Part shown: in pieces, positions 19,040 to 56,482 of the stretch
Layout of the letters: each line of letters begins with the position of its first letter
Position numbering within the stretch: the first letter of the stretch is position 1
Assembly (NCBI GenBank): GCA_041664925.1
Contig: JBAYJV010000001.1
Span: forward strand, 125,845 to 189,844
Origin: Minisyncoccota bacterium
GTDB lineage: Bacteria > Patescibacteriota > Minisyncoccia > JBAYJV01
DNA length: 64,000 bases
Direction of reading: 5' to 3'
Notes under the pieces: model-generated
Told to the model about the DNA's origin: nothing
Seen by the model: only the letters and a program-made list of their open reading frames with translations
The model's database searches: none
Position numbers and translations under genes: made by a program

Positions 19040-19046
19040 TTTTTCT

Positions 19047-35528: not shown

Positions 35529-35530
35529 GT

Positions 35531-36439: not shown

Positions 36440-36456
36440 TATTATTTAGATTAAAT

Positions 36457-37473
36457 ATGAAAATTCTTTATCACATACCATATACTGAAACAACTGGAGC
36501 CGAAAGATGGATTTATGAAGGATGGAAAGATGCTTGGCAAGAATTAAATCATCAGTTTTATGAATTTAAAGACGTTGATAATTTGGCAAAAAAAGTAGAC
36601 AAAATCAAGCCAGATATTTTTTGGACAGCACACAATTTAATAAATATATTAAACGAAAACCAAAAAAATCTTTTAAAAAAAATTCGTCAAGAAGGAGTTG
36701 CGGTTTTCTTTTTCGTAGATGGATCACTTAATGAAAGAGAGCTTGAAATTATAAAAAATGAAGAAATTGCTGACATTTATATCGGAGAAAGAGAGCTTGA
36801 TTCAATGGAAAAATTTATAAAATTAACTGACAGAAAATATTATCTAATCCCCAATGCCGCAGATAAAAAATATCATTTTCCTGTATCTTCGGTAAAAAAA
36901 TACGAATACGACATTGTGTACCTTGGAGCGAAACTTCCCAAGAAAAAATGGTTTTTTGATAATGTTCTCATTCCCCTAACAAAAAAGTATAAAGTGGGAA
37001 TTTTTGGTCCGTATTGGACAACGAAAGACAATTTATTGCGTGCAACTCAAAAGATATGTAAAAAAATTAAATTTAGTGCAGGGGTAAGTTTTTTGAATAG
37101 TTTTAGAATTGTTATTCCACCAGAAGAAGAAAATTTACTTTATTCATCAGCAAAAATTTCTTTGAACTTTCACGAAAGAGAACCAGACGGCAGTCAGCCA
37201 CATCACATACTAAACCAACGCACTTTCAAGATCCCTGCCTGCGGAGGGTTTCAAATTTGCGATTATGTTCCAGCGCTTCAAAAATATTTTACTGAAAATG
37301 AAATAATCACGGCCCGTTTAGATGATGCTGATTGGTTTAAAAAGATTGATTATTATCTAAATCATGAGGAAGAAAGACTAAGAATAAAGAAGGCTGGAAC
37401 AAAAAAGGCCCTCGAAGAGCACACCTATCACAATCGCGTAAAACAAGTTATTGATCTATATGAGAATATTTAA
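36457..37473 (+). CDS. glycosyltransferase, CgeB-like / GT1-type C-terminal domain
   Basis: 338 aa with a C-terminal Glyco_trans_1_2-like region. The assignment is tentative. Confidence 0.4.
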   Translation: MKILYHIPYTETTGAERWIYEGWKDAWQELNHQFYEFKDVDNLAKKVDKIKPDIFWTAHNLINILNENQKNLLKKIRQEGVAVFFFVDGSLNERELEIIKNEEIADIYIGERELDSMEKFIKLTDRKYYLIPNAADKKYHFPVSSVKKYEYDIVYLGAKLPKKKWFFDNVLIPLTKKYKVGIFGPYWTTKDNLLRATQKICKKIKFSAGVSFLNSFRIVIPPEEENLLYSSAKISLNFHEREPDGSQPHHILNQRTFKIPACGGFQICDYVPALQKYFTENEIITARLDDADWFKKIDYYLNHEEERLRIKKAGTKKALEEHTYHNRVKQVIDLYENI

Positions 37474-38335
37474 ATTCATCACCAAGGCCACGATCATTCT
37501 CAAGGCAAATCCTTTTTTAGGATATCGACATATAGTATGTAAGTGTCGAATTAAGATACCCTCGAAAAAACAATTTAGTGTAATAAAAAAAATAGGAAAG
37601 ATAAGATTTGATCTTCGATCAAGAATTTTGGATACTAGCGTTGAATATCGGAAAGAATTGTTTTTTGGTTGTTATGAATTGCCCGTAGTAAGAATACTAA
37701 TGACTGTTCTAAAAAAAGGAGATACTTTTATAGATGTTGGCGCAAATATTGGATATATAAGCGCTATAGCCATGGACCTGGTCGGTCCACAAGGACAAGT
37801 TCACGCTTTTGAGCCAGTTAAGCAATATTTTAGAGAACTTAAAAAACTAAAAATATTGAATAAGAATTATCAATTATATTTAAACAATGTTGCTGTTGGG
37901 AAAAGCGATGGTCAGCATAAAATGCATTGTACAAAACCACCGTTTCTTGGGGGAAGTACAATAGTTAATGGTTTTTTACCAAAAGAAACTCCACAAGAGA
38001 CTCAAGTTGTAAAAATAATGAGACTGGATACATATATACGAAAAAACAACATAAAAAAAATTAAGCTTATAAAAATAGATGTTGAGGGATACGAATATTC
38101 TGTTCTACAAGGTTTTGTTGATCAATTGTTTCTCCTAAAGAAAAAGCCCATAATTATTTGTGAAATATCGCCATCGGCTTATGTAAAAATTGACTACAGC
38201 TTAAAACAACTAAAAAAATATATGTCCGATCACGGTTATGTTGCTAAATCTATCTTAAATCCAAAAGTAATAATTGACATAGAAAATCTTAAAGACACCC
38301 AAGATGTCTTGTTTATGAGCAATAGTCATAATTAG
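37451..38335 (+). CDS. FkbM-family methyltransferase
   Basis: FIDVGANIGYIS motif, ~290 aa. Confidence 0.65.
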   Translation: MIYMRIFKFITKATIILKANPFLGYRHIVCKCRIKIPSKKQFSVIKKIGKIRFDLRSRILDTSVEYRKELFFGCYELPVVRILMTVLKKGDTFIDVGANIGYISAIAMDLVGPQGQVHAFEPVKQYFRELKKLKILNKNYQLYLNNVAVGKSDGQHKMHCTKPPFLGGSTIVNGFLPKETPQETQVVKIMRLDTYIRKNNIKKIKLIKIDVEGYEYSVLQGFVDQLFLLKKKPIIICEISPSAYVKIDYSLKQLKKYMSDHGYVAKSILNPKVIIDIENLKDTQDVLFMSNSHN

Positions 38336-38351
38336 ACATAGACTAATTATC

Positions 38352-39317
38352 ATGCCGAAAAACCTTTTAGTCTCTATTATTATCCCCGCTCACAATGCAG
38401 AGAATTATATTCGAAGAGCGATAGAAAGCGCCCTTAATCAGACATATAAAAATATAGAAATTTTTGTTATTGATGATGGATCAACCGATAACACAGCTAA
38501 AATAATTAAATCCTATAAAGATCCGCGGATAATTTATCTCTATCAAGAAAATGGCGGCCAAGGAAAAGCAAGAAATTATGCTATTAGTAAAAGTACGGGA
38601 AAATATATTACTTTTTTAGATGCCGATGATATTTATCTGCCCGAAAAAGTAGAGCAAGAGGCTAAGTTTTTGATTGCTAATCCGAAATACAAAATTGCTT
38701 ATTGTGATATGTTGCATTTTTATGCTGATAAGCCTGATAAGTTTTTTAGAAAAAAATATCAATACTATTCGGGAGATATTTTGGAAAATTTATTGGATTC
38801 CGTTTTTCTAAATTTGAGTACTGTAATGATTTCTCGAGAACTCTGGAATAATGTAATCAAATCATTAAGCGAAAGGCGATATTATTCAGAAGACTGGGAA
38901 ATGTTTTTAAAAATAGCTGTTAGCGGTTTTTTGTTTGGATATGTCAATAAGGATTTAGTCAAAGTTGAAGTTAGAAGAGATAGTATTACTAGATTAGAAA
39001 ATCAATGGATAGTGAAAGAAAACGCAATAGAAATTTTTAAAAAAATCCTTCCGCAAATTCCTAAAGGAAAATTTGACAGTAAACAAATAAAAAAAATAAT
39101 TAAAAAAATGGAATTCAAACTTGCTATTGCTTATTTGGTGGTCGGAAAGAAAAAAGAATTCTATAAGATTTTTATTTATTTATTAAATCAGCCATTTAGA
39201 ATCTTTCTACAAATTCCAGCAATTGCATTGATTGCAACTCCATCTTTTATTTTAGAACCGCTTCTTAAAAAGGTGTGGTTACTAAATCAAATAAGGAATT
39301 CCCAAAATGAAGAATAA
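38352..39317 (+). CDS. glycosyltransferase family 2
   Basis: VSIIIPAHNAENYI...IDDGSTDNT...FLDADD. Confidence 0.8.
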   Translation: MPKNLLVSIIIPAHNAENYIRRAIESALNQTYKNIEIFVIDDGSTDNTAKIIKSYKDPRIIYLYQENGGQGKARNYAISKSTGKYITFLDADDIYLPEKVEQEAKFLIANPKYKIAYCDMLHFYADKPDKFFRKKYQYYSGDILENLLDSVFLNLSTVMISRELWNNVIKSLSERRYYSEDWEMFLKIAVSGFLFGYVNKDLVKVEVRRDSITRLENQWIVKENAIEIFKKILPQIPKGKFDSKQIKKIIKKMEFKLAIAYLVVGKKKEFYKIFIYLLNQPFRIFLQIPAIALIATPSFILEPLLKKVWLLNQIRNSQNEE

Positions 39318-40347
39318 TAAAAAGCAAAATTCATTGCCCTTAGTCTCGGTTATAATGCCAATTAGAAACGAAGAGAAATATATTAAAGAATGCCTTGAAC
39401 AAATCATTTGCCAGAAATATCCAAAGAATAAAATGGAAATTTTAGTTATTGACGGAATGAGCGAGGATAAAACCAGGGAAATCGTTAATCGTGAATCGAC
39501 AATCGCAAATCGAAAATTCAATATTCATATTCGACTGATTGATAATCCGAAAAAAAATCGATTCCCTGCCCTCAATATCGGAGTTAAAAATGCCAAAGGC
39601 GATTTTATCTTCAGGGTTGACGCAAGAACAATTATTCCTAAAGATTATATTCTCAAATGCGTAACAACTTTACTTGAAACCGGAGCTGATAATGTTGGGG
39701 GTATTCAGAAACCATTGGCAGTAAAGGGGACACAACAAGCCATAGGATTAGCTATGTCACATCCTTTTGGCGTAGGTAACGCTCAGTTTCGCATAGGAAA
39801 AAAAAGTGGCTTCGTGGATAGTGTTTACCTTGGCTGTTTTAGAAAAAGCATTTTCAAAAAAATAGGACTTTTTGATGAAAAATCAGGAATAATCAGTGAG
39901 GATTCAGACATAAACCATCGCATAAGAGTAGCGGGCGGTAGGGTATATTTAAATAAAGATATCATTGCCTATTACTATCCTAGAGATAATTTTAAGGATT
40001 TATGGAAACTTTATTTTAGATATGGTGGTTCTAGGGCAGGAAATTTTTACAAACATGGAACGCTGCGCTTAAGACAGCTTGTTCCTCCAGGATTTCTTGC
40101 AACCATTGTCCTACTTATGTTTTTGTCATTAATAACATTGCTTTTTCTTAAAATTTTATGTACAATCTTGGTAGGATATGCATTGATAGATATTGTTTTC
40201 TCGTTTTGGTTAGCAATAAAAAATAACCGCGCTCCCCTTTTTCTTAAATTACTTATTATTTTTCCCTGTATGCATTTTGCGTGGGCCTTAGGATTTTTTA
40301 AACGCTTATTTCAGGGTCGTAATTATAAAAAAGATTGGCAATACTAA
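39307..40347 (+). CDS. glycosyltransferase family 2 with C-terminal TM helices
   Basis: VSVIMPIRNEEKYI...VIDGMSEDKT, with C-terminal hydrophobic helices. Confidence 0.75.
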   Translation: MKNNKKQNSLPLVSVIMPIRNEEKYIKECLEQIICQKYPKNKMEILVIDGMSEDKTREIVNRESTIANRKFNIHIRLIDNPKKNRFPALNIGVKNAKGDFIFRVDARTIIPKDYILKCVTTLLETGADNVGGIQKPLAVKGTQQAIGLAMSHPFGVGNAQFRIGKKSGFVDSVYLGCFRKSIFKKIGLFDEKSGIISEDSDINHRIRVAGGRVYLNKDIIAYYYPRDNFKDLWKLYFRYGGSRAGNFYKHGTLRLRQLVPPGFLATIVLLMFLSLITLLFLKILCTILVGYALIDIVFSFWLAIKNNRAPLFLKLLIIFPCMHFAWALGFFKRLFQGRNYKKDWQY

Positions 40348-40348
40348 T

Positions 40349-41281
40349 ATGAAAATATTAATTACCGGCGTTGCTGGATTTATTGGCAGCAATCTCAGCA
40401 GTCGCTTAATTAAAGAGAATTTTCAAGTTGTTGGCATTGATAATTTAAGTTATGGCGTTAAGGAACAAATTCCCAAGGGCGTTGATTTTTATAAATTAGA
40501 TATCCGATCAAAAAAAATCTATCCCCTATTTAAAAATGTTGATTTTGTTTTTCACTTAGCGGCAAAAAATTGCATTGCAGATTGCCAAAACGACCCCGTT
40601 GAAACTTCAGATATTAACGTTGCAGGAACTGTTAATGTTTTTGAAGCAGCAAAGAAAGCAAAAGTAAAAAAAGTTATTTATGCTGAATCTTCTGCAATTT
40701 ATGAAGGGAGCAGAATTTATCCCACCCCAGAAACAGAAGAAAAACCAGAAAGTTTTTATGCTATTAGCAAGCTATCGTCAATGCTCTTCGCTAAAGCCTA
40801 TCAAAGATATTTTGGTCTTTCTTCAACCGCTTTGCGCTATTTCTGTGTCTATGGCCCAAGACAGGATTATCGCAGAACCATTCCTCCTATAATGAGTGCC
40901 TTTATCATCAGATTATTAAAAGGGAAAGCACCAGTCATTTATGGCGATGGTACAAAAAAAAGAGATTTTGTTTATGTTGATGATGTGAACGATTTTCATC
41001 TTTTATGCCTTAAGGATAAGCGAACCGATAATAAGGTTTTTAATATAGGCAGTGGAGAAAATTATTCAGTTTTAGAAATTTATCACCTGATTAGTAAGCT
41101 TTTAGATATTAAGATAAAACCGAATTTCAAACCGAACCTTCCCGGTGAGGCCCAAAAAACATTAGCAGACATCTCGTTGGCAGAAAAAATTGGTTGGAAA
41201 CCAAAAACCAGTATCGAAACAGGTCTTTGGGAGATGATTAAATATATTAAAGAAGAAATTAAGAATGGTAATATTAAATAA
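40349..41281 (+). CDS. NAD-dependent epimerase/dehydratase (GalE-like)
   Basis: MKILITGVAGFIGSNL with YAISK as the catalytic YxxxK. Confidence 0.7.
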   Translation: MKILITGVAGFIGSNLSSRLIKENFQVVGIDNLSYGVKEQIPKGVDFYKLDIRSKKIYPLFKNVDFVFHLAAKNCIADCQNDPVETSDINVAGTVNVFEAAKKAKVKKVIYAESSAIYEGSRIYPTPETEEKPESFYAISKLSSMLFAKAYQRYFGLSSTALRYFCVYGPRQDYRRTIPPIMSAFIIRLLKGKAPVIYGDGTKKRDFVYVDDVNDFHLLCLKDKRTDNKVFNIGSGENYSVLEIYHLISKLLDIKIKPNFKPNLPGEAQKTLADISLAEKIGWKPKTSIETGLWEMIKYIKEEIKNGNIK

Positions 41282-41995
41282 ATGAAAGTAATTCTCCTTG
41301 CTGCCGGTAAAAGCACTAGATTAAAAAAAATTACCGAAAATATTCCCAAGCCAATGTTAAGGGTTGGAAATGAAATTGTTCTTGAACATAATATTTTCTG
41401 GCTTAAAAAATACGGCATTTACGATATTTATATTAACCTTCATTATCTTCCCAAAGTTATTAAAGACTACTTCGGCAATGGTAAGAAATTGGGTATTAAA
41501 ATAAAGTATTCATACGAGAAAGAAATTTTAGGAACCGCCGGAGGAATAAAAAAAATAATTGATAGATATAAAAAAGATAATTGGAAAAGTGATTTCTTGG
41601 TAGTCTACGGTGATAGTTTCTATCCCATTGATTATGATTTAAAAAAAATCATTGCCTTTCATAAAAAGAAAAAGGGTATTGCCACAATTGGTTTTTATCA
41701 CAAAAAAAGTGAAATTTGGAAAAGTGGTATTGCGGTTTTGGATGAGAATAAGCGCATTAATAATTTTATTGAAAAACCAAATCCAAAAGAAATAAAAAGC
41801 GATTTAGTCAACACAGGAATTTATATATTTAGTTCAGGAATCATAAATTATTTACCTAAGAGTTTTTCTGATTTTGGGAAAGATATTTTTCCAACGCTGC
41901 TCAAAAAAAATATCCCCATTTATGGATATGTTTTTAGGCAAGATTTAATACCTATTGATACGCCTGAACTTTACCTTAGAGCACAAAAACTATGA
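41282..41995 (+). CDS. hddC: sugar-1-phosphate nucleotidyltransferase, probable D-glycero-alpha-D-manno-heptose 1-phosphate guanylyltransferase
   Basis: MKVILLAAGKSTRL. It lies immediately upstream of and overlaps the heptose 7-phosphate kinase gene. Confidence 0.55.
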   Translation: MKVILLAAGKSTRLKKITENIPKPMLRVGNEIVLEHNIFWLKKYGIYDIYINLHYLPKVIKDYFGNGKKLGIKIKYSYEKEILGTAGGIKKIIDRYKKDNWKSDFLVVYGDSFYPIDYDLKKIIAFHKKKKGIATIGFYHKKSEIWKSGIAVLDENKRINNFIEKPNPKEIKSDLVNTGIYIFSSGIINYLPKSFSDFGKDIFPTLLKKNIPIYGYVFRQDLIPIDTPELYLRAQKL

Positions 41996-42993
41996 TTATT
42001 ACTCGTACGCCATTTAGGTTTACATTAGGAGGAGGAGGCACTGATTTGCCAGCATATTATTCAAAGTATGGTGGTTTTATTTTTTCTGCTGGCATAAACA
42101 AGTATATGTTTATCAACATTAATCAGCCGGTAGCCGACGATCTAATTAGAATTAAATATGATGATTCAGAGACAGTCAAAAGCCTTGATTTGGTTAGGCA
42201 CGATATCGCTAGAGAGGCACTTCGCATGATGCATATCAAAAATAATATAGATATCGCTTCTATGGCTGATATTCCTGGAGGTACCGGACTAGGCTCTTCA
42301 AGTTGTTACGCTGTCGGATTATTAAATGGACTTCACGCCATAAAAAAACAAAAAATCTCGCGCAGACAATTAGCTGAAAAAGCCTGTAAGCTAGAAATCG
42401 ACATTCTTAAAAAACCCATTGGGAAACAAGATCAATATATAGCTACCTTTGGAGGATTGACCGTTTTAGACATTGATAAAAAGGGTAAGGTAAAAGTTAG
42501 GTCAGCAAAACTTTCTGATGAAACTATTGAAAATTTGAATCGCAATCTTTTAATGTTTTATACTAATACTTCAAGGGACGCTAATGTAATTCTTGCTGAA
42601 CAAAGCCATGGAGCTAAGCAAGAACAAAAAAATGTTATAGAAAGTATGCACTATATAAAAGAAATCGGTTATAAGATCCTTAAAGCGGCTGAAAGTGGTA
42701 ATATCACTGACATCGGTGTTTTATTTGATAAGCACTGGCAGCACAAAAAGAAAATATCTTCAAAAATGTCTAATCCTAGATTTGATAAGATATATAATAT
42801 TGCTAAAGAAAACGGTGCGCTGGGTGGAAAAATTTTGGGAGCTGGGGGTGGTGGATTTTTTATCTTTTATATCGAAAAGAAACAATCAGAATTCCGTAAA
42901 GTTATAAAAGAATTGGGACTTCGGGAAATGGAATATGCTTTTGATTTTGAGGGCACAAAAGTATTGGCAAATTTTGAGAATATTAAAAAGTAG
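41992..42993 (+). CDS. hddA: GHMP kinase, probable D-glycero-alpha-D-manno-heptose 7-phosphate kinase
   Basis: IITRTPFRFTLGGGGTDLP and PGGTGLGSSS GHMP motifs. Size and N-terminus match HddA. Confidence 0.6.
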   Translation: MIITRTPFRFTLGGGGTDLPAYYSKYGGFIFSAGINKYMFININQPVADDLIRIKYDDSETVKSLDLVRHDIAREALRMMHIKNNIDIASMADIPGGTGLGSSSCYAVGLLNGLHAIKKQKISRRQLAEKACKLEIDILKKPIGKQDQYIATFGGLTVLDIDKKGKVKVRSAKLSDETIENLNRNLLMFYTNTSRDANVILAEQSHGAKQEQKNVIESMHYIKEIGYKILKAAESGNITDIGVLFDKHWQHKKKISSKMSNPRFDKIYNIAKENGALGGKILGAGGGGFFIFYIEKKQSEFRKVIKELGLREMEYAFDFEGTKVLANFENIKK

Positions 42994-42997
42994 ATAT

Positions 42998-44311
42998 ATG
43001 ACAATTCGAAAAAAGAAAATTGGAATAATTGGCCTTTGGCATCTCGGTTGCGTAGTTGCCTCTTCTCTTGCCGATGCCGAACACAACGTTATCGGCACTG
43101 ATTTTGATCAAAAAATATTAGAAGACTTAAAAAACAAAAAATCGCCAATTCAGGAACCTGGATTAGAAGAGTTACTTAATAAAAATATTAAAAAAGGCAC
43201 CCTTGTTTTAACAAATTCTTTTCAACAAGCAATAACTGATGTTGATTTTATATTAATAGCTTTTGATACTCCAGTAGACAGCAACGATAGACTGGATTTA
43301 TCGCCTATTTATAAAGCATGCAATTTGATTGCTAAATATGCTCCTAAAAAATTTACATTGGTGATTATGAGTCAAATACCAGTTGGCACTTCGAGAGAAC
43401 TTAAAAAAATAATTTTAAACAAAAACAAAAAGTTATCTTTCGATATCATTTATAGTCCTGAAAATCTTAGATTGGGCGAGGCACTAAAAGGGTTTGCTAA
43501 TCCAGAAAGAATTATTATCGGACTTGAGAAACACAGCATAAAGCAGAAAGCAGAAGAATTGTTTTCTTTTATAAAAGCGCCGAAAATTTATATGGACATA
43601 GAAAGCGCTGAAATGACAAAACATGCTATTAATACATATTTGGCAACTTCTATCAGCTTCATTAATGAATTAGCAAATTTGTCTGAGGTTCTGGGCGTTG
43701 ACATTAAAAAAGTAATAGAGGGAATGAAAAGCGATAGTCGGATCGGAAAACGTGCATTTTTGAATCCAGGATTAGGTTTTTCTGGAGGAACGCTCGGTCG
43801 AGATATTCAAGTCTTGAGAAATTTTGGGAAAAAACTTGAAATTAAGACCGGCCTTATGGATGCTGTGCTAAAAATTAATAAAAGTAGACAAGAAATGCTA
43901 TTTAAAAAAATTAATAACATTTTCTCTTCCCTTTCTGGGCTAAATATTGGATTACTTGGGCTCACTTATAAGGCGGGAACTAATACTTTGCGACGATCGG
44001 TCGCCATAGAAGTAGCTCGAAAATTAATCAGTAGAGGCGTCAATGTTAGCGCTTTTGATCCAATGATTAGTGAAAAAGTTAATACTATTAAAAAATTAAA
44101 AATTTCAAAAAGTCCATACGAAATTGCCAATGACGCAGATGCATTGATATTAATGACAGATTGGCCAGAATTTAGAAAACTAGATTTTGTTAAGATAAGA
44201 AAAATCATGAAAAAAGTAATTATTATCGATATGAAAAATTTTCTAGATACTGACATGCTTAAAAAATTATCTTTTGACTATTACGGTGTGGGCATAAAAA
44301 ACATTTCATAA
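42998..44311 (+). CDS. nucleotide-sugar dehydrogenase (UDP-glucose/GDP-mannose dehydrogenase family)
   Basis: IGIIGLWHLGCVVA Rossmann fold. The start was set at the internal ATG (MTIRKKKIGIIG). Confidence 0.7.
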   Translation: MTIRKKKIGIIGLWHLGCVVASSLADAEHNVIGTDFDQKILEDLKNKKSPIQEPGLEELLNKNIKKGTLVLTNSFQQAITDVDFILIAFDTPVDSNDRLDLSPIYKACNLIAKYAPKKFTLVIMSQIPVGTSRELKKIILNKNKKLSFDIIYSPENLRLGEALKGFANPERIIIGLEKHSIKQKAEELFSFIKAPKIYMDIESAEMTKHAINTYLATSISFINELANLSEVLGVDIKKVIEGMKSDSRIGKRAFLNPGLGFSGGTLGRDIQVLRNFGKKLEIKTGLMDAVLKINKSRQEMLFKKINNIFSSLSGLNIGLLGLTYKAGTNTLRRSVAIEVARKLISRGVNVSAFDPMISEKVNTIKKLKISKSPYEIANDADALILMTDWPEFRKLDFVKIRKIMKKVIIIDMKNFLDTDMLKKLSFDYYGVGIKNIS

Positions 44312-44321
44312 AAATAAACTC

Positions 44322-45191
44322 ATGATTTTACTTAAAAATAATTCTACGAATTTAAAGAATAAAGTAGCTGTGATTACGGGAGGCACAGGTGGCATAGGAA
44401 GTGTTATTGCATTACTCTTTGTCAAAGAAGGTGCAAAAGTAATTATTATTGATGTTGATAAAAAAAGAATTGATGCTTTAGTTAAAAAAATAGGAAACGA
44501 ATCTATCGGTATAAAAATAGATGTTCGTAATCCTTCCCAAATAAAAAAGGCTGTGAGCGAAATCGTAAGAAAGTTCAAAAAAATTGATATTCTGATAAAT
44601 GCCGCAGGAGTACAAGGACCAATCGGTCTTCTCGTTGATGCCGATTTAGATAATTGGACTAATAACATTAAAATTAATTTATTTGGAACTGTTAATTTTT
44701 GTAAAGCAGTCTTACCCTTGATGATAAAAAAGAAGGGCGGTAGGATTATTAATTTTTCAGGAGGCGGTGCAACATTTTCCAGGCCACATTTTTCTGCTTA
44801 TGCTGTTTCAAAAATTGCTGTAGTAAAATTTTCAGAAATTTTAGCTGATGAGGTAAAAAAGTATAATATCTATGTCAATGCTATTGCTCCAGGAGGAATA
44901 AATACAAATATGCTAAAAGAGGTTTTGCAGCAAAGAAAATCTGCAGGCGAAGAAGAATTTAAAAAAGCTCAAGAAAGAAAGAAAGATGGCGGTACTCCTC
45001 CGGAATTAGTTGCCGAATTGGTATTATTCTTGGCTTCTGAAAAATCACACAATCTTACAGGAAAACTCATAAGCGCCCCTTGGGATAATTGGAAAAAGTG
45101 GAGTAAAAATGATATAATCCAAATTAATAAAACTACAAAATACACTTTGAAAAGAATAGATAATAAAAATTTTAAAGAAATTAAAATATGA
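44322..45191 (+). CDS. SDR-family oxidoreductase
   Basis: VAVITGGTGGIGS and YAVSK catalytic motif. Confidence 0.7.
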   Translation: MILLKNNSTNLKNKVAVITGGTGGIGSVIALLFVKEGAKVIIIDVDKKRIDALVKKIGNESIGIKIDVRNPSQIKKAVSEIVRKFKKIDILINAAGVQGPIGLLVDADLDNWTNNIKINLFGTVNFCKAVLPLMIKKKGGRIINFSGGGATFSRPHFSAYAVSKIAVVKFSEILADEVKKYNIYVNAIAPGGINTNMLKEVLQQRKSAGEEEFKKAQERKKDGGTPPELVAELVLFLASEKSHNLTGKLISAPWDNWKKWSKNDIIQINKTTKYTLKRIDNKNFKEIKI

Positions 45192-46183
45192 ATATAGGAA
45201 TCATTGGCGCTGGACTCATTGGCAATAAACGCGCACAAACTATAGAAGAAATTGGAAAAGATGTGATCGTTGCCATTGCTGATATTGAAAAAAATAAAGC
45301 GATAGAATTTTCAAGAAAATACCAGTGTCGAGCGCTAGACAAATGGCAAAAAATGGTTAAGATGGACGGTATTGATGCTATTATTATTGCTGTTCCCAAT
45401 AAATGGGTTGCGCCAATAGCAATTGAAGCTTTAAAACAAAAAAAGCATATTCTCTGCGAAAAACCATTTGGAAGAAACGCCAGTGAGTCGAAGCAAATTT
45501 TAGAAACAGCTAAACGAAATAAATGTTTAGTTAAGGTTGGTTTTAATCATCGTTTCCATCCAGCAATTTGGAAAGCAAAAGAAATCATTAATAAAAATAA
45601 AATTGGAAAGGTAATTTTTATTAGAGCTCGTTATGGACATGGTGGAAGATTGGGAATGGAAAAAGAATGGAGAGCGAACAAAAATATTTCCGGTGGCGGA
45701 GAACTTTTAGATCAAGGCGTTCATTTAATTGATCTTGCAAGATGGTTTGCTGGAGAAATTAGAGAGGTTTTTGGTGTCGTAGAAACTAAATTCTGGGACA
45801 TGAAAGTTGAAGACAATGCCTTTGTGATTATGAAAAATGATGATGTAACTGTGGAGTTTCATGTTAGCTGGACTAATTGGAAAAATATTTTTTCTTTTGA
45901 AATTTTTGGAGAAAAAGGTTTTTTACAAATTGAAGGATTGGGTGGAAGTTATGGAAAAGAAAAACTAATCTTTGGGGAACGAAATCTAGGCTTTGGCATT
46001 CCAAAGATTCAAGAATTTGAATTTGAAAAAGACCTAAGCTGGCAAGAAGAATGGAAAAACTTTCGATCAGCGGTTTTAAAAAAAGAAAAAATGATTGGTG
46101 ATGGCAATGACGGACTCAAGGCAAATCAAATTGTTGAAGCAATTTATCAATCAAGTAAGATTAAAAAAATCGTCAGTCCATGA
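45188..46183 (+). CDS. Gfo/Idh/MocA-family oxidoreductase
   Basis: MNIGIIGAGLIGNKRA with an EKP motif. Confidence 0.7.
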   Translation: MNIGIIGAGLIGNKRAQTIEEIGKDVIVAIADIEKNKAIEFSRKYQCRALDKWQKMVKMDGIDAIIIAVPNKWVAPIAIEALKQKKHILCEKPFGRNASESKQILETAKRNKCLVKVGFNHRFHPAIWKAKEIINKNKIGKVIFIRARYGHGGRLGMEKEWRANKNISGGGELLDQGVHLIDLARWFAGEIREVFGVVETKFWDMKVEDNAFVIMKNDDVTVEFHVSWTNWKNIFSFEIFGEKGFLQIEGLGGSYGKEKLIFGERNLGFGIPKIQEFEFEKDLSWQEEWKNFRSAVLKKEKMIGDGNDGLKANQIVEAIYQSSKIKKIVSP

Positions 46184-46704
46184 AAAGCACCAGAGCAATT
46201 TTTTTAGACAGAGACGGGATCATTAATGATTTAGTTTTCAGGGATAACGGGTTTTTTTCTCCTAGAGTTTTCAGTGATTTTAAGCTTAAAAGAGGCATAA
46301 AAAAATTCTCACAAAAAACTAAGAGCCTTGGTTTTTTAACAATCGTTGTGACCAATCAACCGGACATAGAAAGAAAATTAATGAAAGTAAGTGAACTTGA
46401 AAAAATGCACAGTGTAATTATGGAAAATCTATCAGTTGACGAAATCGTGACTTGTCCGCATGATGATAAAAATAATTGTTTGTGCAGAAAACCAAAACCC
46501 GGAATGATAAAAGATATGTCAAAAAAATGGCATATAGATTTAAAAAAATCTTTTATCATCGGAGACAGCTGGAAAGATGTTGAAGCTGGTAAGCAGGCTG
46601 GTTGCAAAACTATTTTTTTGAAAACTGATTATAATAAAAAAGAAGAGATTTTCCCCGACTTTAAGGTCTCCTCTTTTAGAGAAATTATTGATATCATTAA
46701 ATAA
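46180..46704 (+). CDS. gmhB: D,D-heptose 1,7-bisphosphate phosphatase (HAD-IIIA)
   Basis: FLDRDGIIN motif I and a CPHDDKNNCLCRKPKPGM Zn-binding insertion typical of GmhB. Confidence 0.65.
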   Translation: MKSTRAIFLDRDGIINDLVFRDNGFFSPRVFSDFKLKRGIKKFSQKTKSLGFLTIVVTNQPDIERKLMKVSELEKMHSVIMENLSVDEIVTCPHDDKNNCLCRKPKPGMIKDMSKKWHIDLKKSFIIGDSWKDVEAGKQAGCKTIFLKTDYNKKEEIFPDFKVSSFREIIDIIK

Positions 46705-46727
46705 AGTTTTATTTATTTATAATTTAC

Positions 46728-47447
46728 ATGAAACAAAAGTTAAAACTTCCTAAAATTAAAATTTTTTCTGATGGTGCTTGTAGGGCAGACATTCTGAAAC
46801 AAGCAAAAATTCCTCTAGTAAAAGGGTTCACAACTAATCCGTCATTAATGAGAAAATCTGGTATTACAGATTATGAAAAATTCGCTAAAGACATTCTAAG
46901 GTTTGTTAAAACCAAGCCGATCTCCTTTGAGGTATTCTCTGATGACTTCAGCGAGATGGAACGACAAGCCAGAGAGATTGCTTCATGGGGAAAAAACGTT
47001 TATATAAAAATTCCAATAACCAACACTAAGGGAAAATCATCATTTAACCTAGTTAAAAAACTTTCTTACGACAATATTAAGATCAATGTAACCGCCGTAA
47101 TGACATTGGGACAAGTTAAAAATATTGTTAAGGCATTGAACCCCAAAACACCAAGCATTGTCTCGGTGTTTGCCGGCAGGATCGCTGATACTGGAGTAAA
47201 TCCAATTCCAACAATGAGAGCGGCTGCAAAGCTTCTATCAAAACTTCCCAAAGCCGAGCTTCTCTGGGCCAGCCCCAGACAACCACTTGATGTGTTTTTA
47301 GCAGCACAGGCTAAATGTGACATCATCACAGTTTTTCCAGAAATAATAGGAAGATTTGATAGAATTGGCAAAGACTTAAAGGAATATTCTCTTGAAACTG
47401 TTAAAATGTTTTATGAAGACGCAAGGACAGCCGGATACAAGTTGTGA
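46728..47447 (+). CDS. tal: transaldolase / fructose-6-phosphate aldolase family (short TalC/FSA type)
   Basis: IFSDGA...GFTTNPSLM matches the TAL/FSA signature (GVTTNPS). About 239 aa. Confidence 0.65.
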   Translation: MKQKLKLPKIKIFSDGACRADILKQAKIPLVKGFTTNPSLMRKSGITDYEKFAKDILRFVKTKPISFEVFSDDFSEMERQAREIASWGKNVYIKIPITNTKGKSSFNLVKKLSYDNIKINVTAVMTLGQVKNIVKALNPKTPSIVSVFAGRIADTGVNPIPTMRAAAKLLSKLPKAELLWASPRQPLDVFLAAQAKCDIITVFPEIIGRFDRIGKDLKEYSLETVKMFYEDARTAGYKL

Positions 47448-48031
47448 TACCAAAGTCTATGATAAGCAAACAAAAAAAATACATTGATAGATATCTAAAG
47501 GAGGTAAGGGTAATTATAGAACTTATTGATAGAGAAAAAATTATTGAGATAATTGATGTCTTGGAAAAAATCAGAGAAAAAAAAGGTAGAATTTTTGTTT
47601 TGGGAATTGGTGGTTCTTCAGCTAATGCTTCTCATGCCGTAAATGATTTCAGAAAGATTTGTGGTATCGAAAGTTACACTCCAACCGATAATGTTGCAGA
47701 ACTGACTGCTTGGACAAATGATAATGGTTTTGAATATATATTTATAAAATGGCTTCAGTGTTCTCATTTCAATAAAAATGATGCATTAGTTATTTTATCT
47801 GTCGGAGGTGGCAGTCAAACAACTTCTCAAAACTTAGTTTTGGCAATGCGTTATGCTAAAAAACTTGGAGCTAAAATTGTCGGCATAGTTAGTCGTGATG
47901 GTGGAGAGACAAGGAAACTTGCTGATGCCTGCGTTATCATTCCCCCACTTGTTCATGAGCGCATCACTCCCCACGCAGAAGAGTGGCAAGGTATAATTCT
48001 TCACTTAATCGCAAATGCACTTGTTTCTTAG
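47444..48031 (+). CDS. gmhA: SIS-domain sedoheptulose-7-phosphate isomerase
   Basis: IFVLGIGGSSANASHAVNDF and SVGGGS motifs. Confidence 0.65.
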   Translation: MIPKSMISKQKKYIDRYLKEVRVIIELIDREKIIEIIDVLEKIREKKGRIFVLGIGGSSANASHAVNDFRKICGIESYTPTDNVAELTAWTNDNGFEYIFIKWLQCSHFNKNDALVILSVGGGSQTTSQNLVLAMRYAKKLGAKIVGIVSRDGGETRKLADACVIIPPLVHERITPHAEEWQGIILHLIANALVS

Positions 48032-48057
48032 TTATATTATATTTGTGTTTTGATTTT

Positions 48058-49017
48058 ATGGCAACAAAGAAAAAAATCTTAGTAACAGGCGCTGGTGGTT
48101 TTATCGGCCATCACTTGGTCCGTTTTCTCAAGAAAAAAGGTTATTGGGTAAGAGGCGCTGATATAAAATACCCTGAATATTCTCCCAAAAATGAAGCGGA
48201 TGAATTTTTAAAAATTGACCTGCGAGATACCAAAAACTGTCTCAAGGCAACTCAAGGAATGGACGAAGTCTATAATTTAGCAGCCAATATGGGCGGCATT
48301 GGCTTTATTACTTTTCACACTTCTGATGTTTTATATGACAATGTGATGATTAACGCCAATATGGCGGAAGCTTGCAAGCAGAACAAAGTCAAAAGGATTT
48401 TCTATTCTTCCTCTGCTTGTGTTTATCCTATTGGGAAACAGAAGAATCCTAAAGTTATTGCTTTAAAAGAAAAAGATGCTTATCCGGGAGATCCTGACAA
48501 TGAATATGGCTGGGAAAAATTATTCTCCGAGCGCCTTTATGCTTCTTATAAAGAATTTTACAAAGTAAGAATTGCCAGATTTCACAATATTTTTGGCGAA
48601 GAAGGAACTTACGATGGCGGAAGAGAAAAGGCGCCGGCCGCTCTTTGTCGAAAAATTGCTTTGGCAAAAACCAAAGACACAATTGAGATTTGGGGAGATG
48701 GAAAACAGACAAGATCGTTTTGCTATATAAGCGATTGCGTTCAAGCTATATACGGTTTGATGAAATCTGATTTTGATCAGCCATTAAATATAGGGTCAAG
48801 CAGATTGGTGTCTATGGATGAACTTGCTGATATTATCGCCAAGATTGCCAAAAAAACAATCACTAAAAAACATCTTCTTAATAAACCGCAAGGCGTTAGA
48901 GGAAGAAATTCTGACAATACTCTTTTTAAAAAACTTTTTGGTTGGGCGCCACCAAAGATTAGTTTAGAAGAAGGGCTTAGAAGAAATTACGAATGGATTG
49001 AAAAACAAGTAAAATAA
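48058..49017 (+). CDS. NAD-dependent epimerase/dehydratase, nucleotide-sugar modifying
   Basis: ILVTGAGGFIGHHLV motif. The start was moved to the ATG after the gmhA stop. Confidence 0.7.
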   Translation: MATKKKILVTGAGGFIGHHLVRFLKKKGYWVRGADIKYPEYSPKNEADEFLKIDLRDTKNCLKATQGMDEVYNLAANMGGIGFITFHTSDVLYDNVMINANMAEACKQNKVKRIFYSSSACVYPIGKQKNPKVIALKEKDAYPGDPDNEYGWEKLFSERLYASYKEFYKVRIARFHNIFGEEGTYDGGREKAPAALCRKIALAKTKDTIEIWGDGKQTRSFCYISDCVQAIYGLMKSDFDQPLNIGSSRLVSMDELADIIAKIAKKTITKKHLLNKPQGVRGRNSDNTLFKKLFGWAPPKISLEEGLRRNYEWIEKQVK

Positions 49018-49076: not shown

Positions 49077-50420
49077 TTATGAAGTCAGGTCTGTTCCGGT
49101 AGTATAGGCATCTCTATCAACTTGATTAATGATATAAATTGCATCCCAGTCATACTTTGAAGAGAAAACGCTTGCTGACATATTCATCCAGCGCTTAGCG
49201 CCGGTATCGCCATCCGGATAAAGCCTATAAACCTTAGGATCGTTAACTTTTTTGGCAACATCATTGCATCTTACCAAATCAGAAATGGTATAAGTGAGCA
49301 TTTCTGCATTGGTAATAATTTTTAAATTACTCCATTTGAGATGCTGATAGCTATCAAAGACATGAGGACTCAAAACCAACCTTCGATATTTCTTACTATT
49401 GATTAATTTCACAATATAAACATCGAATTTTTCCATACCGGGAGCATTCGATGCTCTGACAATATCGCCGTCAACAAGATGACTGTCAGGTGTGGTAGTG
49501 TCGGGAGTACTCGATCCGGTAGCACCACCAATGATTGAGAAATATGTGAAGTGAGTCGTTGTTGCAGTAATGGTATTGGTAACCTTATCAATCGTACATG
49601 AAAGTGCTATCCATTTTGAAGTAGCTGTGTCCCAGTAATATATTTTTAAGCTATTTTCATCAAGCCCTTGAATTTGGGCATCTGTATAGGTCATCGTGAT
49701 TGTTACTGCCTTGGTAAATGTCGTTAAGTTTGTTGAGCCAACTGTTGCAGTGTAATTATATAAATTACCAACAATTGTTTGTCCCGTGCCTATGCCAGCA
49801 ACCATACCTGACACAGCGCTTGATGTTTGAGCAACGGATTCAATGGCAACGGCCGTAGATGCCGTGAGAGTGTCTTTTTCTATCTTTACAGTCGCTTTAG
49901 TGCCATTGCTACCAGTCAAAGAAGTCTCTCCGCCTAATGAAGCTGTGGCAATCACCGAACCATTGGTCGTTGAAGGCATCGCTTGGGCAGGAACTCCGCC
50001 ACCACCACCACCGCTACTACTGCTAGTGCTAATTGTGTAAGCAGCAGAAGCAGTTGAAGATTGTCTATTATTAGAGTAACAAGATATCGCTGTAATTGTT
50101 TGACTAGAAGAAACTGAAATAGCTGAAGCGTAAAGAGTACCTGTGGTACAGGTAGTCCCCAAGGCGCTACAGACTGGTGTAGTGCCGTTAGCAGTATAGC
50201 AAATACCTGTTGTTCCTGCTGCAGTTAGAGTAACGCTTTGAGTTGATGTATAAGTACCAGCTGCAGGAGAAATCGTAGGAGCTGCTATTAATGTTCCGCT
50301 TATACCAGTTTCAAGTGTAGGTGATAAAGTACCTGATGCTTCAGACGCACTAACAACATCAATAACCAAAAAAGACGTCAAAAGCATCAAGCCAAAAACA
50401 TATAAAACTTTTTTTACCAT
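49077..50420 (-). CDS. secreted Thr/Ser-rich surface protein with C-terminal anchor-like module
   Basis: 447 aa with a signal peptide and poly-Gly/Ser/Thr low-complexity stretches. The C-terminal ~125 aa (HLVDGDIVRASN...VYIVKL...RCNDVAKKVNDPKVYRLY...KRWM) are homologous to the modules in 19842..21596 and 59256..62507. Confidence 0.55.
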   Translation of the reverse strand: MVKKVLYVFGLMLLTSFLVIDVVSASEASGTLSPTLETGISGTLIAAPTISPAAGTYTSTQSVTLTAAGTTGICYTANGTTPVCSALGTTCTTGTLYASAISVSSSQTITAISCYSNNRQSSTASAAYTISTSSSSGGGGGGVPAQAMPSTTNGSVIATASLGGETSLTGSNGTKATVKIEKDTLTASTAVAIESVAQTSSAVSGMVAGIGTGQTIVGNLYNYTATVGSTNLTTFTKAVTITMTYTDAQIQGLDENSLKIYYWDTATSKWIALSCTIDKVTNTITATTTHFTYFSIIGGATGSSTPDTTTPDSHLVDGDIVRASNAPGMEKFDVYIVKLINSKKYRRLVLSPHVFDSYQHLKWSNLKIITNAEMLTYTISDLVRCNDVAKKVNDPKVYRLYPDGDTGAKRWMNMSASVFSSKYDWDAIYIINQVDRDAYTTGTDLTS

Positions 50421-50496
50421 AATATTTATTTAAGCAAATTGATTATTTTGAGTGAGAGAGGGTAGGAAACCTACCCCCTCCCTGAAATCTTTTTGA

Positions 50497-53400
50497 TTAT
50501 GATGATTGAATGCCGTAACTGGTAGAATAAGATCCACTCGATGAACCCGTCGGCACTTTCGCTTCAACCGTCACCTGAATTTGTCTACCAATTGTTGAGG
50601 CATCGGTGTCGCCAGTTAATGTCATGCCACTACTAAGAGTGCTAGCTGCTGTAATACCAATCGCACTGCCAGTTGTGCTTGCATTTGATGATTGAGCCGA
50701 ATAGAAACGCATATTATCAGTCACGGCAATCGTATTGCTTCCGCTCGTCCAATTATCAAACTTCATTTTGAAGGTCGTTTCTGAGGTCGGTACCGTGATA
50801 TTGAATGTCCATGACCAACCATCGGTTGTTGAAGCAACGCCATCTGGCCATCCACCAGCAACAGCGGCATAAGATTCCTTAGTGGTAATACTCGTTACAG
50901 CTAACGATCCATCGCCTTGAGCGACTGTCGTAAATTCTTGATCTGCCTTTGTTGTGTAGGCTGTCATAGCGTTTCCTGCGGCATCTTTGGCGCCGGAAAC
51001 CCAGATATAATACTGCGTGCTGTTATCCAAGCTCGCAACAGGATCAATCGTAGCAATATAAGTACCGGAGACATAAGTGACTACTGAATTAACTACTGCA
51101 TCCGTAGATGAGGCTCTCAATTGAACCGTGTTTGTATTGATGGTATCGGAATCCATTGCTTCAGAGAAGGTAACGGTTGGTGAAACTGTAATAGCAGTAC
51201 CTGTTGCATTATCTAACGGTGTTTGTGATAACACGCTTGGAGCGCTATCTGCTATGGTCGTAAATTCTTGATCTGCCTTTGTTGTGTAGGCTGTCATAGC
51301 GTTTCCTGCAGCATCTTTAGCGCCTGAAACCCAGATATAATACTGAGTACTATTGCTCAAGCTAGCAACTGGATCAATGGTAGCAACATAAGTACTGACA
51401 TTGTAAGTAACCACTGAATTAATTATCGCATCCGTAGATGAGGCTCTTAATTGAACAGTGTTTGTATTTACGGTTGACGAATCCATCGCTTCAGAGAAGG
51501 TAACGGTCGGAGAGACTGTAATGGCGGTACCTGTTGCATTATCTAGCGGTGTTTGTGATGATACACTTGGAGCGCTAGATGAAACCGTAATGCCTGTCTG
51601 AGACCCTGTAATGGTCGGACTGGCATTATCTGTTCCCGTTACGCTGACTCCTCCTTCAGCAGTTGTGAATTTAATCATGTCGTTAAAGAGATAGCTTCCA
51701 TTGTCACCTGCTATGAAGGTGTGTCTGCCATTACTTTGCCAGATCGGTCCAGTTGATGACGCGTCCATCCAGACAGAACCAGTATAAGCAGTATCAATAT
51801 TACTGTTAGCATCAACAGAAGCTACTGTTACATCAACAGGAGTATTGGCTGCTGGAGTGGTTGTGCAACTAACCGACAATACAGAAACTATAAAGTTTAT
51901 AGCAAGAGTCGTATCGGCCGTTGAAGTTGTTAAGGTTGAACCAACACCTGTATCAGAAGCGGTTAAGCTTAATGTGTCTTCATCGGGAGTAGTTGCCGTC
52001 AAGTTGGCTGCTGGAATTTGGACTGTCGTTAATGCCTTAGTTCCAGCCACTAAAGTACTGGTACTAGAAGTAAGAGTTAGTGAATCGCCTGTTGAGTCAG
52101 CAATAGCGATAGAGATAGTACTGACATCATCAGGATCGGTGTTGCTGTGAACATCTTTTGCTGTGACTGTTACTGAGATATTATCAGCAAATCTGACATT
52201 TGGGGAAGCTGCCGCCGAAGAAACATCAGACACCACTAATTTTGTCGCAACCACATCCAATGGGGTTGTTGTTGTGACGGCTGACATGTTACCGGCAGTA
52301 CCTAAAGCCCCATCGTCGTCGAAAGACAGGGTGATTGATGCGTCGTCAGTAAAGGTGCCATCAACGCTCGCTTTAAGCCCTGAGAAAGTGGCAATACCCA
52401 AAGTCATCGTGCTAGTTGTATTACCAACTAATGAAGTATTAGCAGTTGTTGAGGTAGCGGTAATTGTTTCTGAGCTGATACCAGTATCGGTGTTGCTGTG
52501 AGCATCGTAGGCTTTAATGACTGGCTGAGTAGTCAAGTTAACCAAGTCAACTGCGCCGCTTGGACTAGTAGTGATTGCTAGTTGAGTAGCAACTACATCC
52601 AAGGAGGTAGTTGAAGTAACAGCTGCCATATTAACGCCACCAATATCTCCGTCATCATTGAAGGATAAATTCATCGAAGCGCCATCAGTAAATGTCCCAT
52701 CAACATTAGCTTTGAGTCCTGAGAAGGTAGCAATACCTGAAGCCATGACCGCTGTCGTTGTGCCCGATACTGAAACGTTTGACGTGTCTGTAGTAGCGGT
52801 AATTGTTTCTGTGCTAACACCAGTATCGGTATTATTGTGAGCATCGTAGGCCTTAATGACTGGCTGAGTAGTTAATGCTACGGTATCAACCGCTCCACTT
52901 GGAGCAGTAGTTATTGCTAATTTTGTTGCAACTACCCCCAAAGAGGTGGTCGCGGTAACAGGTGTCATATCAACACCGCCAATACCTCCGTCATCATTGA
53001 AGGAGAAAGTGATGGTAGAACCATCAGTAAATGTTCCATCCACACTCGCTTGAAGTCCAGAGAAAGTGGCAATACCTGAAGCCATAGTGCTAGTCGTATT
53101 GCCAACGGCTGAAATATCTGTAGTTGTAATTGAGGCTGTAATGACTTCTCCCGTAACACCGGCATCGGTGTTGTCGTGAGCATCGTAGGCCTTAATGACT
53201 GGTTGACCTGTTAAGTTTACTAAATCTTCCGCACCACTTGGAGCAGTAGTTATTGATAATTTTGTCGCAACTACACCCAAGGAGGTGGTCGCGGTAACAG
53301 GTGTCATATCAACACCGCCAATGCCTCCGTCATCATTGAAGGATAAAGTAATTTCAGATCCGTCGGTAAAAGTACCATCTATACTTGCTTGGAGTCCTTC

Positions 53401-56446: not shown

Positions 56447-56482
56447 TTTAGACGAGATTTCTTGTTCTGTTTATTTATTATT
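56447..56482 (-). terminator. intrinsic terminator downstream of 56483..57433
   Basis: On the minus strand, ATCTCGTCT, loop AAA, AGACGGGAT then TTTTTTGTTT. Confidence 0.55.

Follow-up and report, generated by a model that had tools for sequence, protein, structure and literature searches.

The stretch of DNA analysed here, called the window below, comprises 64,000 nucleotides of contig JBAYJV010000001.1 from a Minisyncoccota bacterium of the candidate phyla radiation (CPR), and our subject is a cassette of plus-strand genes at 40349..49017 within it. We propose that these genes are one copy of a widespread, conserved module for a nucleotide-activated higher-carbon sugar and that, with about as much speaking for this as against it, they encode a transaldolase-started pathway to a nucleoside diphosphate octose (NDP-octose) that would feed a Wzx/Wzy-type glycan. 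The proposal is built on the gene families of the cassette and their packing in the manner of an operon, on how well the module is conserved, on the coupling of its transaldolase (TAL) to its SIS-domain isomerase and on the loss of the catalytic cysteine from a dehydrogenase-like protein, all of which are direct observations. The pathway so proposed would be a sugar-nucleotide route of the lincosamide kind, started by a TAL and serving to build surface glycans. No earlier description of the module, or of a TAL-linked heptose or octose glycan cluster, was found in the searchable literature.

The cassette and the conserved module

The core of the cassette consists of five open reading frames (ORFs) that a preliminary description of the window had already located on the plus strand and assigned to superfamilies, and both location and assignment hold. 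They encode a sugar-1-phosphate nucleotidyltransferase (NTase; 41282..41995; Pfam NTP_transferase), a GHMP anomeric sugar kinase resembling HddA and LmbP (41992..42993; GHMP_kinases_N and _C domains), a HAD-IIIA phosphatase resembling GmhB and LmbK (46180..46704; TIGR01656 and TIGR01662 above cut-off), a TIGR02134-type TAL of 239 amino acids (aa) that is the proposed first committed enzyme (46728..47447), and a SIS-domain ketose-phosphate/aldose-phosphate isomerase (47459..48031, with the ORF open from 47444), which is a distant match to GmhA with a putative LmbN-like role. The Zn-binding CxH...CxC loop of the phosphatase, already recognised as GmhB-like, reads CPH...CxC and is accompanied by DRDG, TNQ, RKPxPG and GDS motifs. 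The four genes of the supposed heptose pathway had been described as contiguous; all four are present, but three oxidoreductase genes (42998..46183) split the NTase and kinase genes from those for the phosphatase, TAL and isomerase. This trio encodes a UDP-glucose/GDP-mannose-dehydrogenase-family protein that resembles LmbL and CcbL and lacks the catalytic Cys (42998..44311; all three UDPG_MGDP_dh domains), a FabG-like classical short-chain dehydrogenase/reductase (SDR) that is probably a ketoreductase acting on a sugar nucleotide (44322..45191; adh_short, 186 bits; TGxxxGxG and YxxxK motifs), and a Gfo/Idh/MocA-family NAD(P) oxidoreductase resembling LmbZ and CcbZ (45188..46183; GFO_IDH_MocA N- and C-terminal domains).

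Two extended-SDR genes enclose these on the same strand. The one directly 5′ of the NTase gene (40349..41281; Pfam Epimerase, 190 bits) encodes an epimerase/dehydratase-family protein that is GalE- and 4,6-dehydratase-like, scores under the cut-offs of those models and is a candidate for LmbM-like tailoring; orthologues at 51-67% identity are present in four module loci of other genomes (L031, L038, L048, L082). The one at the end of the cassette (48058..49017; Pfam Epimerase, 154 bits) encodes an epimerase/reductase whose nearest NCBIfam model is GDP-L-fucose synthase (123 bits against a cut-off of 500), with orthologues at 84% identity in one locus (L001) and at 50-53% in three more (L037, L040, L065). 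Comparative data show the three oxidoreductase genes and both flanking epimerase genes, which the preliminary description had not counted in, to be part of the pathway. The genes are closely packed, with ATGA overlaps at the NTase/kinase, SDR/Gfo and Gfo/HAD junctions. The TAL gene does lie between those for the phosphatase and the isomerase, as had been described; the ATGA overlap reported at its 3′ end is in fact GTGA, and an alternative ATG start for the isomerase at 47459, 11 nt beyond the TAL stop codon, is the one chosen by gene callers on identical contigs.

The TAL scores 303.7 bits against TIGR02134, above the cut-off of 281.95, and its alignment to the structure 1vpx shows that the Schiff-base Lys, the Glu, Asp and Thr residues and the TAL-type Phe are all present. 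Its gene is the only tal of the window, and the pentose phosphate pathway (PPP) operon at 0.7-6.7 kb, which holds a split tkt, rpe, rpiB and gap, lacks one, as noted in the preliminary description.

The isomerase was used to trace the module in other genomes. Thousands of homologues exist at 55-79% identity, and, among 1.84 billion representatives of clusters at 50% identity, 213 are matched by the protein with E≤1e-30. An alignment of 24 diverse members (A1) has a mean column identity of 70%, and H59, D63, E174 and H182 are invariant in it, so that two positions of the catalytic and metal-binding tetrad of GmhA (His-Glu-Gln-His) are changed; the phosphate-binding loop is also longer than in GmhA. 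By these sequence features the protein belongs to a separate, highly conserved clade apart from GmhA. In a survey with two clade motifs and one genome per species, at least 600 species representatives were matched, and the best 80 of these loci, selected by the isomerase match alone, were examined. They come from Bacillota, including many Lachnospiraceae (among them the cultured strain AC3007), from Legionella, Coxiellaceae and other Gammaproteobacteria, from Nitrospina and Nitrospira, from Acidobacteriota, Verrucomicrobiota, Omnitrophota, Chloroflexota and Myxococcota, and from Patescibacteria, Margulisbacteria and Pelagibacteraceae, with the addition of the archaeon Methanospirillum. The cassette had been taken for a peculiarity of a CPR lineage that probably lacks lipopolysaccharide (LPS), but it is not confined to the CPR, since the same module occurs in many phyla, LPS-bearing ones included. 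Complete copies are found on plasmid 3 of Lawsonia intracellularis and on a chromid of Rhizobium jaguaris, and the cultured carriers comprise L. intracellularis, R. jaguaris CCGE525, Rhizobium sp. CB3060, Lachnospiraceae bacterium AC3007 and Clostridiaceae 1XD21-72.

Partners of the isomerase were counted by searching nine window proteins against all fetched loci, with the 49 of the 80 loci that have at least 5 kb on both sides as the base. The TAL is the most constant of them, being present in 48 of the 49 and no more than 1.5 kb from the isomerase gene in 46, followed by the extended-SDR epimerase (43), the GHMP kinase (41), the HAD phosphatase (40) and the NTase (32). The Gfo/Idh/MocA protein is present in 27, typically followed by the kinase and then the NTase gene, the classical SDR in 26, mostly between the genes of the dehydrogenase-like and Gfo proteins, and the dehydrogenase-like protein itself in 11-18. 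Linkage of TAL to isomerase spans more than 15 phyla and several gene orders, for which the chance of finding a tal gene in such a 20-kb window, roughly estimated at 1%, provides the background. When all 1,389 ORFs from 84 distinct loci were clustered without bias, no families other than these nine recurred widely as neighbours; the clustering further yielded an NTase-HAD fusion in 16 loci, a PgfS/ArnC-like polyprenyl-phosphate GT2 glycosyltransferase in 11 and a DegT aminotransferase, non-adjacent, in nine.

Gene fusions tie the steps together even more closely. The TAL is fused to the isomerase in a 449-aa protein (P0361), the isomerase to the phosphatase in a 391-aa protein (L088), and the NTase to the phosphatase in proteins of about 448 aa in one Lachnospiraceae locus (L019, 8592..9911) and 15 others of that family; NTase-SIS and HAD-SIS fusions are also present. 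Because the NTase-SIS, SIS-HAD, HAD-SIS and NTase-HAD fusions join them, the steps of the module can be taken to form one pathway. At least three lineages of TAL serve in the module, namely the TIGR02134 type (most loci), an fsa/talC-like type and a 252-aa type from Ryanbacteria, and there are at least three gene orders. The commonest order, shared by Legionella, Rhizobium, Geobacteraceae and others, is an optional GT2 gene followed by those for the epimerase, dehydrogenase-like protein, SDR, Gfo protein, kinase, NTase, isomerase, HAD phosphatase and TAL, and the oxidoreductase trio accompanies the module in Legionella, Rhizobium, Lawsonia, Geobacteraceae and Patescibacteria. Since the module is found in taxa such as Legionella, Rhizobium, Lawsonia and Acidobacteriota, which we take to have normally a full PPP as well as LPS, the TAL does not compensate for an absent housekeeping gene. 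The 48 of 49 linkage and the fusions bear out the earlier suggestion that the TAL is dedicated to the pathway. The role that had been suggested for it, supply of sedoheptulose 7-phosphate (S7P) to the isomerase, is weakened, as it leaves unexplained why the TAL should be the isomerase's most constant partner.

Heptose-enzyme relatives and a dehydrogenase without its cysteine

The fit of the heptose labels was assessed with the curated NCBIfam models and their equivalog cut-offs. The isomerase reaches 54.3 bits on the GmhA model TIGR00441 (cut-off 209), the kinase 163 bits on the HddA model NF049969 (cut-off 600), although HddA is its top NCBIfam model, and the phosphatase 118 bits on the beta-type and 95 bits on the alpha-type GmhB model (cut-offs 178 and 250). 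The NTase scores 92 bits on the HddC model NF049965 (cut-off 300), which is only its fourth-best model, the top one being mannose-1-phosphate guanylyltransferase with 126 bits. The NTase is no nearer to HddC than is a second, unrelated NTase of the same gene cluster (27331..28017), with 83 bits on the same model. Searches against the Protein Data Bank (PDB) gave a similar picture: E 1e-12 at best for the isomerase against GmhA structures, E 1e-36 to 1e-39 for the kinase against 3k85, 4n3o and 4usk (HddA/WcbL being the best), E 1e-16 to 1e-19 against GmhB for the phosphatase (3l8h, 4pnh, 2gmw), and 8x7s as the best match of the NTase, the HddC structure 5xhw following behind other nucleotidyltransferases with only 62 bits. 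RefSeq names for the module copy of a cultured organism are equally general: SIS domain-containing protein, HAD-IIIA family hydrolase, transaldolase, galactokinase and nucleotidyltransferase family protein. By these scores the four proteins are relatives of the heptose enzymes and not demonstrable members of their families. The labels GDP and alpha-D-manno-heptose in the preliminary description are not supported, all four enzymes falling far under the equivalog cut-offs and context being the sole basis of the names. Its enzyme logic was upheld: a ketose-phosphate isomerase, an anomeric GHMP kinase, a GmhB-like phosphatase and an NTase are present, and no HldE-type enzyme is among them.

The dehydrogenase-like protein (437 aa) matches PDB 4a7p with E 6e-71. 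It shares the three-domain architecture of UDP-glucose and GDP-mannose 6-dehydrogenases, with E values down to 1e-71, and differs from them by a Cys to Thr replacement: the catalytic-Cys motif GGxCxxKD reads GGTLGRD, whereas the window's canonical copy (28946..30283) has GGPCFPRD. An alignment of 28 sequences shows the same replacement in nearly all module-linked homologues and other Cys-less variants in two, while unrelated canonical dehydrogenases from the same neighbourhoods retain the Cys. The catalytic Cys for the second oxidation being gone, ordinary uronic-acid formation, a four-electron oxidation, is not to be expected, and a role as maker of hepturonic or octuronic acid was accordingly rejected. 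A two-electron oxidation, fitting a dehydration or epimerisation sequence, is the more likely activity to be predicted from the motif.

An octose or a heptose product

The pathway in mind is that of the lincosamide antibiotics. In the lincomycin/celesticetin route, the transaldolase LmbR joins ribose 5-phosphate (R5P) to a C3 unit of fructose 6-phosphate (F6P) or S7P, forming D-glycero-D-altro-octulose 8-phosphate. LmbN, a SIS protein, isomerises this product, after which the kinase LmbP, the phosphatase LmbK and the guanylyltransferase LmbO lead to GDP-octose, and the epimerase LmbM, the dehydrogenase LmbL, the NAD(P) oxidoreductase LmbZ and the aminotransferase LmbS convert GDP-octose to GDP-lincosamide. 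Of the celesticetin proteins, CcbL (436 aa) is assigned to the nucleotide sugar dehydrogenases, and CcbZ is listed as a dehydrogenase (PMC4351081, supplementary table).

The cassette covers eight of the nine Lmb sugar-gene families (R, N, P, K, O, M, L and Z), a match that holds at the family level. The lincosamide clusters of Streptomyces lincolnensis and S. caelestis resemble the cassette in encoding, along with the sugar genes, a TAL that makes the ketose phosphate; further common members are the SIS isomerase, the GHMP kinase, the NTase and the GmhB-like HAD phosphatase, to which both add an epimerase, an NAD(P) oxidoreductase and a protein of the nucleotide-sugar-dehydrogenase family with about 436 aa. 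Both sets are tightly packed with 4-nt overlaps, and the Z-P-O order of lmb (Gfo, kinase, NTase) recurs in module loci. The differences are that the cassette has one additional classical SDR and no aminotransferase corresponding to LmbS/CcbS, that its TAL is a 239-aa protein of TIGR02134 type while CcbR has 222 aa and its closest relative in Cellulomonas, and that its setting is a Wzx/Wzy surface-glycan cluster, in CPR bacteria and hundreds of other species, instead of an antibiotic cluster. In its gene families, the cassette is closer to the octose pathway of lincomycin than to any heptose pathway studied. Known heptose pathways have no equivalents of the Cys-less protein, the Gfo protein, the SDR and the epimerase, and LmbL, LmbZ and LmbM of the GDP-octose route do match members of this set. 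For CcbK, CcbN, CcbP, CcbO and CcbZ, the nearest homologues outside the lincosamide clusters are reported from Solibacter usitatus, Sorangium cellulosum, Acidobacterium capsulatum and an uncultured acidobacterium (PMC4351081), and lineages related to these sources, namely Bryobacterales, Acidobacteriaceae and Kofleriaceae, carry the module (L047, L061, L064, L085, L088). A search seeded with a Polyangiaceae isomerase and directed at Sorangium CAN93908, the closest CcbN homologue, returned only proteins of metagenome-assembled genomes (MAGs), and no Lmb or Ccb structures are among the PDB match lists.

By analogy with LmbR, the TAL would take a C3 dihydroxyacetone unit off F6P or S7P and add it to R5P, yielding D-glycero-D-altro-octulose 8-phosphate; it is the choice of R5P as the acceptor that would give the sugar eight carbons. 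The divergent isomerase would convert this to octose 8-phosphate, the GHMP kinase would phosphorylate C1, the GmhB-like phosphatase would strip the terminal phosphate, and the NTase would form an NDP-octose, the nucleotide possibly being GDP. One or both extended-SDR epimerases, the Cys-less dehydrogenase-like protein, the Gfo/Idh/MocA protein and the classical SDR would afterwards modify the ring or the side chain through oxidation, dehydration, reduction or epimerisation, with no transamination predicted. Finally, glycosyltransferases of the cluster would build the sugar into a glycan that this Paceibacteria (CPR) cell exports by Wzx/Wzy.

Several points weigh against an octose. To our knowledge, aldo-octoses are unreported in bacterial polysaccharides, where heptoses are common, which sets a strong prior for seven carbons. 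Transaldolases are promiscuous, the TIGR02134 type is regarded as a housekeeping PPP enzyme in Staphylococcus and Coxiella, and cells with only a non-oxidative PPP make S7P from hexoses via TAL, so that supplying S7P would make chemical sense as the role of the TAL. Among characterised proteins, it is heptose enzymes that score best with the isomerase, kinase and phosphatase, in libraries without competing Lmb models, and the correspondence with the octose genes, drawn through their described functions, is one of families. Three of eight lmb adjacencies (L/M, Z-P and P-O) are shared, compared with about 1.8 expected by chance, and synteny was accordingly set aside as a sign of common descent, being only a weak hint of it. 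No DegT-type aminotransferase is present among the ORFs of the window cluster scanned with Pfam and NCBIfam, and DegT, which would have completed the Lmb set, was rejected as a tenth member of the module, as it occurs in only nine of the 84 loci and there 2-8 kb away among other glycan genes. Lastly, two Polyangiaceae loci (L058, L091) carry the isomerase clade next to an epimerase with no TAL or HAD gene within 10 kb; in L091, the NTase and kinase genes are 4 kb from that of the isomerase.

The main alternative, the one put forward in the preliminary description, is a heptose pathway, in which the TAL would supply S7P from F6P and erythrose 4-phosphate, and the divergent GmhA, kinase, phosphatase and NTase would produce an NDP-D-glycero-D-heptose that is then tailored by the epimerases and oxidoreductases. 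We consider this a serious possibility, albeit on the doubtful side. As a variant, the altered isomerase may give the gluco instead of the manno configuration at C2, with a 4-epimerase leading on to D-glycero-D-galacto-heptose, or the product may be a deoxy or keto derivative. The studied GmhA/HddA/GmhB/HddC pathway shares the superfamilies and the chemical logic of the four core steps and provides the nearest solved structures; GmhA, HddA/WcbL and GmhB are the nearest characterised relatives, and the Joint Genome Institute (JGI) labels clade members sedoheptulose-7-phosphate isomerase. Heptoses are well known in glycans, many carriers of the module are Lachnospiraceae, and polymers of D-glycero-D-galacto-heptose are known from Eubacterium saburreum, a member of that family. 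The window's PPP operon without tal also fits, as a cell with only a non-oxidative PPP needs a TAL to obtain S7P from hexoses. Yet the studied pathway contains neither a TAL nor the trio of dehydrogenase-like protein, Gfo protein and SDR, and we know of no characterised ADP- or GDP-heptose system that encodes a TAL. Transketolase makes S7P anyway, and the TAL is kept in bacteria normally having a complete PPP. A mere supplier would hardly be expected to be more constant than the kinase, phosphatase or NTase, to be replaced by non-orthologous lineages and to be fused to the isomerase. The distance of all four enzymes from the equivalog cut-offs also counts against a heptose, as does the pairing of the Cys-less protein with a Gfo protein, for which the known tailoring of heptoses has no equivalent; extended SDRs and cupin epimerases do this work in Campylobacter, Yersinia and Burkholderia.

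A different TAL-started higher sugar, such as a nonose built from hexose 6-phosphate or an octose stereoisomer from arabinose 5-phosphate or xylose 5-phosphate, with the downstream logic unchanged, would draw on the same comparative data, which make the TAL the source of the ketose phosphate, and transaldolases accept several aldose phosphates. We regard it as improbable, as no such sugar has a precedent for entering activation of the GmhA/HddA/GmhB type and the only characterised TAL-started sugar-nucleotide route uses R5P. Still harder to credit, to the point of being very nearly dismissed, is a housekeeping TAL placed by chance in a glycan operon, with oxidoreductases for other sugars and an ordinary four-enzyme GDP-heptose route. 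It could draw on the sole tal of the window, the lack of one in the PPP operon and the naming of TIGR02134 as a general transaldolase. Most module TALs, including that of the window, do score above the cut-off of TIGR02134, the model of the Staphylococcus-type enzyme; they differ from that enzyme in lying within a sugar-nucleotide module and in being replaceable by other lineages. The near-universal linkage in more than 15 phyla and several gene orders, together with the fusions, rules out a chance neighbour, and the oxidoreductase trio recurs with the module.

Surface-glycan setting and significance

Upstream of the cassette lies the rest of the Wzx/Wzy-type glycan cluster (25767..40347, plus strand; identified with Pfam and NCBIfam), whose products would use the sugar. 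The whole cluster extends over 23 kb in one direction and includes three methyltransferases, GT1 and GT2 enzymes, a canonical UDP-glucose dehydrogenase, epimerases and a Wzx flippase (32280..33728, plus strand), in line with the single co-directional block of glycosyltransferases, methyltransferases and Wzx of the preliminary description; these neighbouring genes likewise bear out its placement of the pathway within a surface-glycan cluster. To this block can be added an initiating polyprenyl glycosylphosphotransferase of the EPS type (25767..27167), which scores 342 bits on TIGR03025 (cut-off 296). A 737-aa membrane protein with a Wzy_C domain (O-antigen ligase/polymerase; Pfam, 73.6 bits) is encoded divergently from the cluster (23444..25657, minus strand). 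A NadE-family NAD synthase gene (28017..28814, plus strand; Pfam NAD_synthase, 212 bits) stands between those for the second NTase and the canonical UDP-glucose dehydrogenase, and its product may be a housekeeping enzyme or an ATP-dependent amidating enzyme acting on a uronic acid.

Beyond the cassette, a 447-aa protein with a chitobiase/hexosaminidase C-terminal domain and Fn3-associated domains (49077..50420, minus strand) precedes the giant surface-protein genes, which are found at 50497..56193 (1898 aa, Big_5), 57747..58970 (FG-GAP) and 59256..62507 (1083 aa, no Pfam match). The G+C content is 31-35% in the glycan cluster (26001..48000) and 43-47% at the giant genes (50001..62000), a strong compositional heterogeneity within a single CPR contig. 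At the other end of the window, in the PPP operon on the minus strand, transketolase is encoded by two separate ORFs (757..2534), one for its N-terminal half (277 aa) and one for its C-terminal half (309 aa), and a 445-aa ORF with no Pfam or NCBIfam match occupies the rpe/rpiB interval (3269..4606). The assignment of the host to the CPR is upheld by SecA of the window, which is 100% identical to a protein from a Candidatus Paceibacterota MAG and has its next relatives in Parcubacteria and Ryanbacteria. A metagenome contig of 350 kb carries an identical stretch.

The surroundings of the module vary among its carriers. A gene for a polyprenyl-phosphate GT2 of the PgfS/ArnC kind stands ahead of the module in the loci of Legionella, Rhizobium and other Gram-negatives (L033, 1684..2661; L042, 4098..5500; L090, 4216..5956; L012, 3633..4625), and this gene is often followed by an ORF of 133-155 aa with the size of a membrane protein. 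This suggests that the sugar is there moved to a lipid carrier for periplasmic glycosylation in the style of Gtr, Arn or Pgf, unlike its use with Wzx/Wzy in the window. Directly 3′ of the module in one locus (L004, 13067..20579) are three tandem proteins of about 950 aa with PMT_2 (GT-C glycosyltransferase) and PA14 domains, and PMT_2 proteins also flank the module in two Ryanbacteria loci (L005, L006) and in L091. In the same two Ryanbacteria loci, the SDR and Gfo genes are separated from the core module by two B12-binding radical SAM genes (15850..19090). The module is also present in an uncultured Coxiellaceae genome (L044). Two proteins encoded in the O-antigen region of Coxiella burnetii are CBU0674, named a "phosphoheptose isomerase", and CBU0678, which is HldE-like with its domains reversed and is required for phase I LPS and virenose (PMC5843353). 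The Coxiella LPS papers mention CBU0674 as part of this region and make no link to a transaldolase.

The CPR host is the least unusual part of the finding, and the interest lies in the module itself, in its breadth and in the prospect of octoses being common in cell envelopes. Three results would hold for a heptose product as well: the isomerases, kinases, phosphatases and NTases of the module make up a large family to which annotation now gives general or wrong names, the obligatory coupling to TAL is without precedent in heptose biosynthesis, and the UDP-glucose dehydrogenase family has a Cys-less branch. The cultured carriers make the question of the product directly testable. Should it prove to be an octose, sugars of a kind at present known only from a few antibiotics would turn out to be common building blocks of the envelope in many phyla, in groups that include CPR bacteria, gut Lachnospiraceae, relatives of Legionella, rhizobia and the pig pathogen Lawsonia, and the module would indicate where, in evolution, the sugar pathway of lincomycin came from. 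It is conceivable, if slightly short of an even prospect, that straight-chain sugars of the aldo-octose type, NDP-octose derivatives akin to the precursor of lincosamine and made by the module in hundreds of species, are widespread and overlooked in the surface glycans of bacteria, CPR members included, and that the lincosamide sugar genes are a specialised offshoot of this primary-metabolism-like module.

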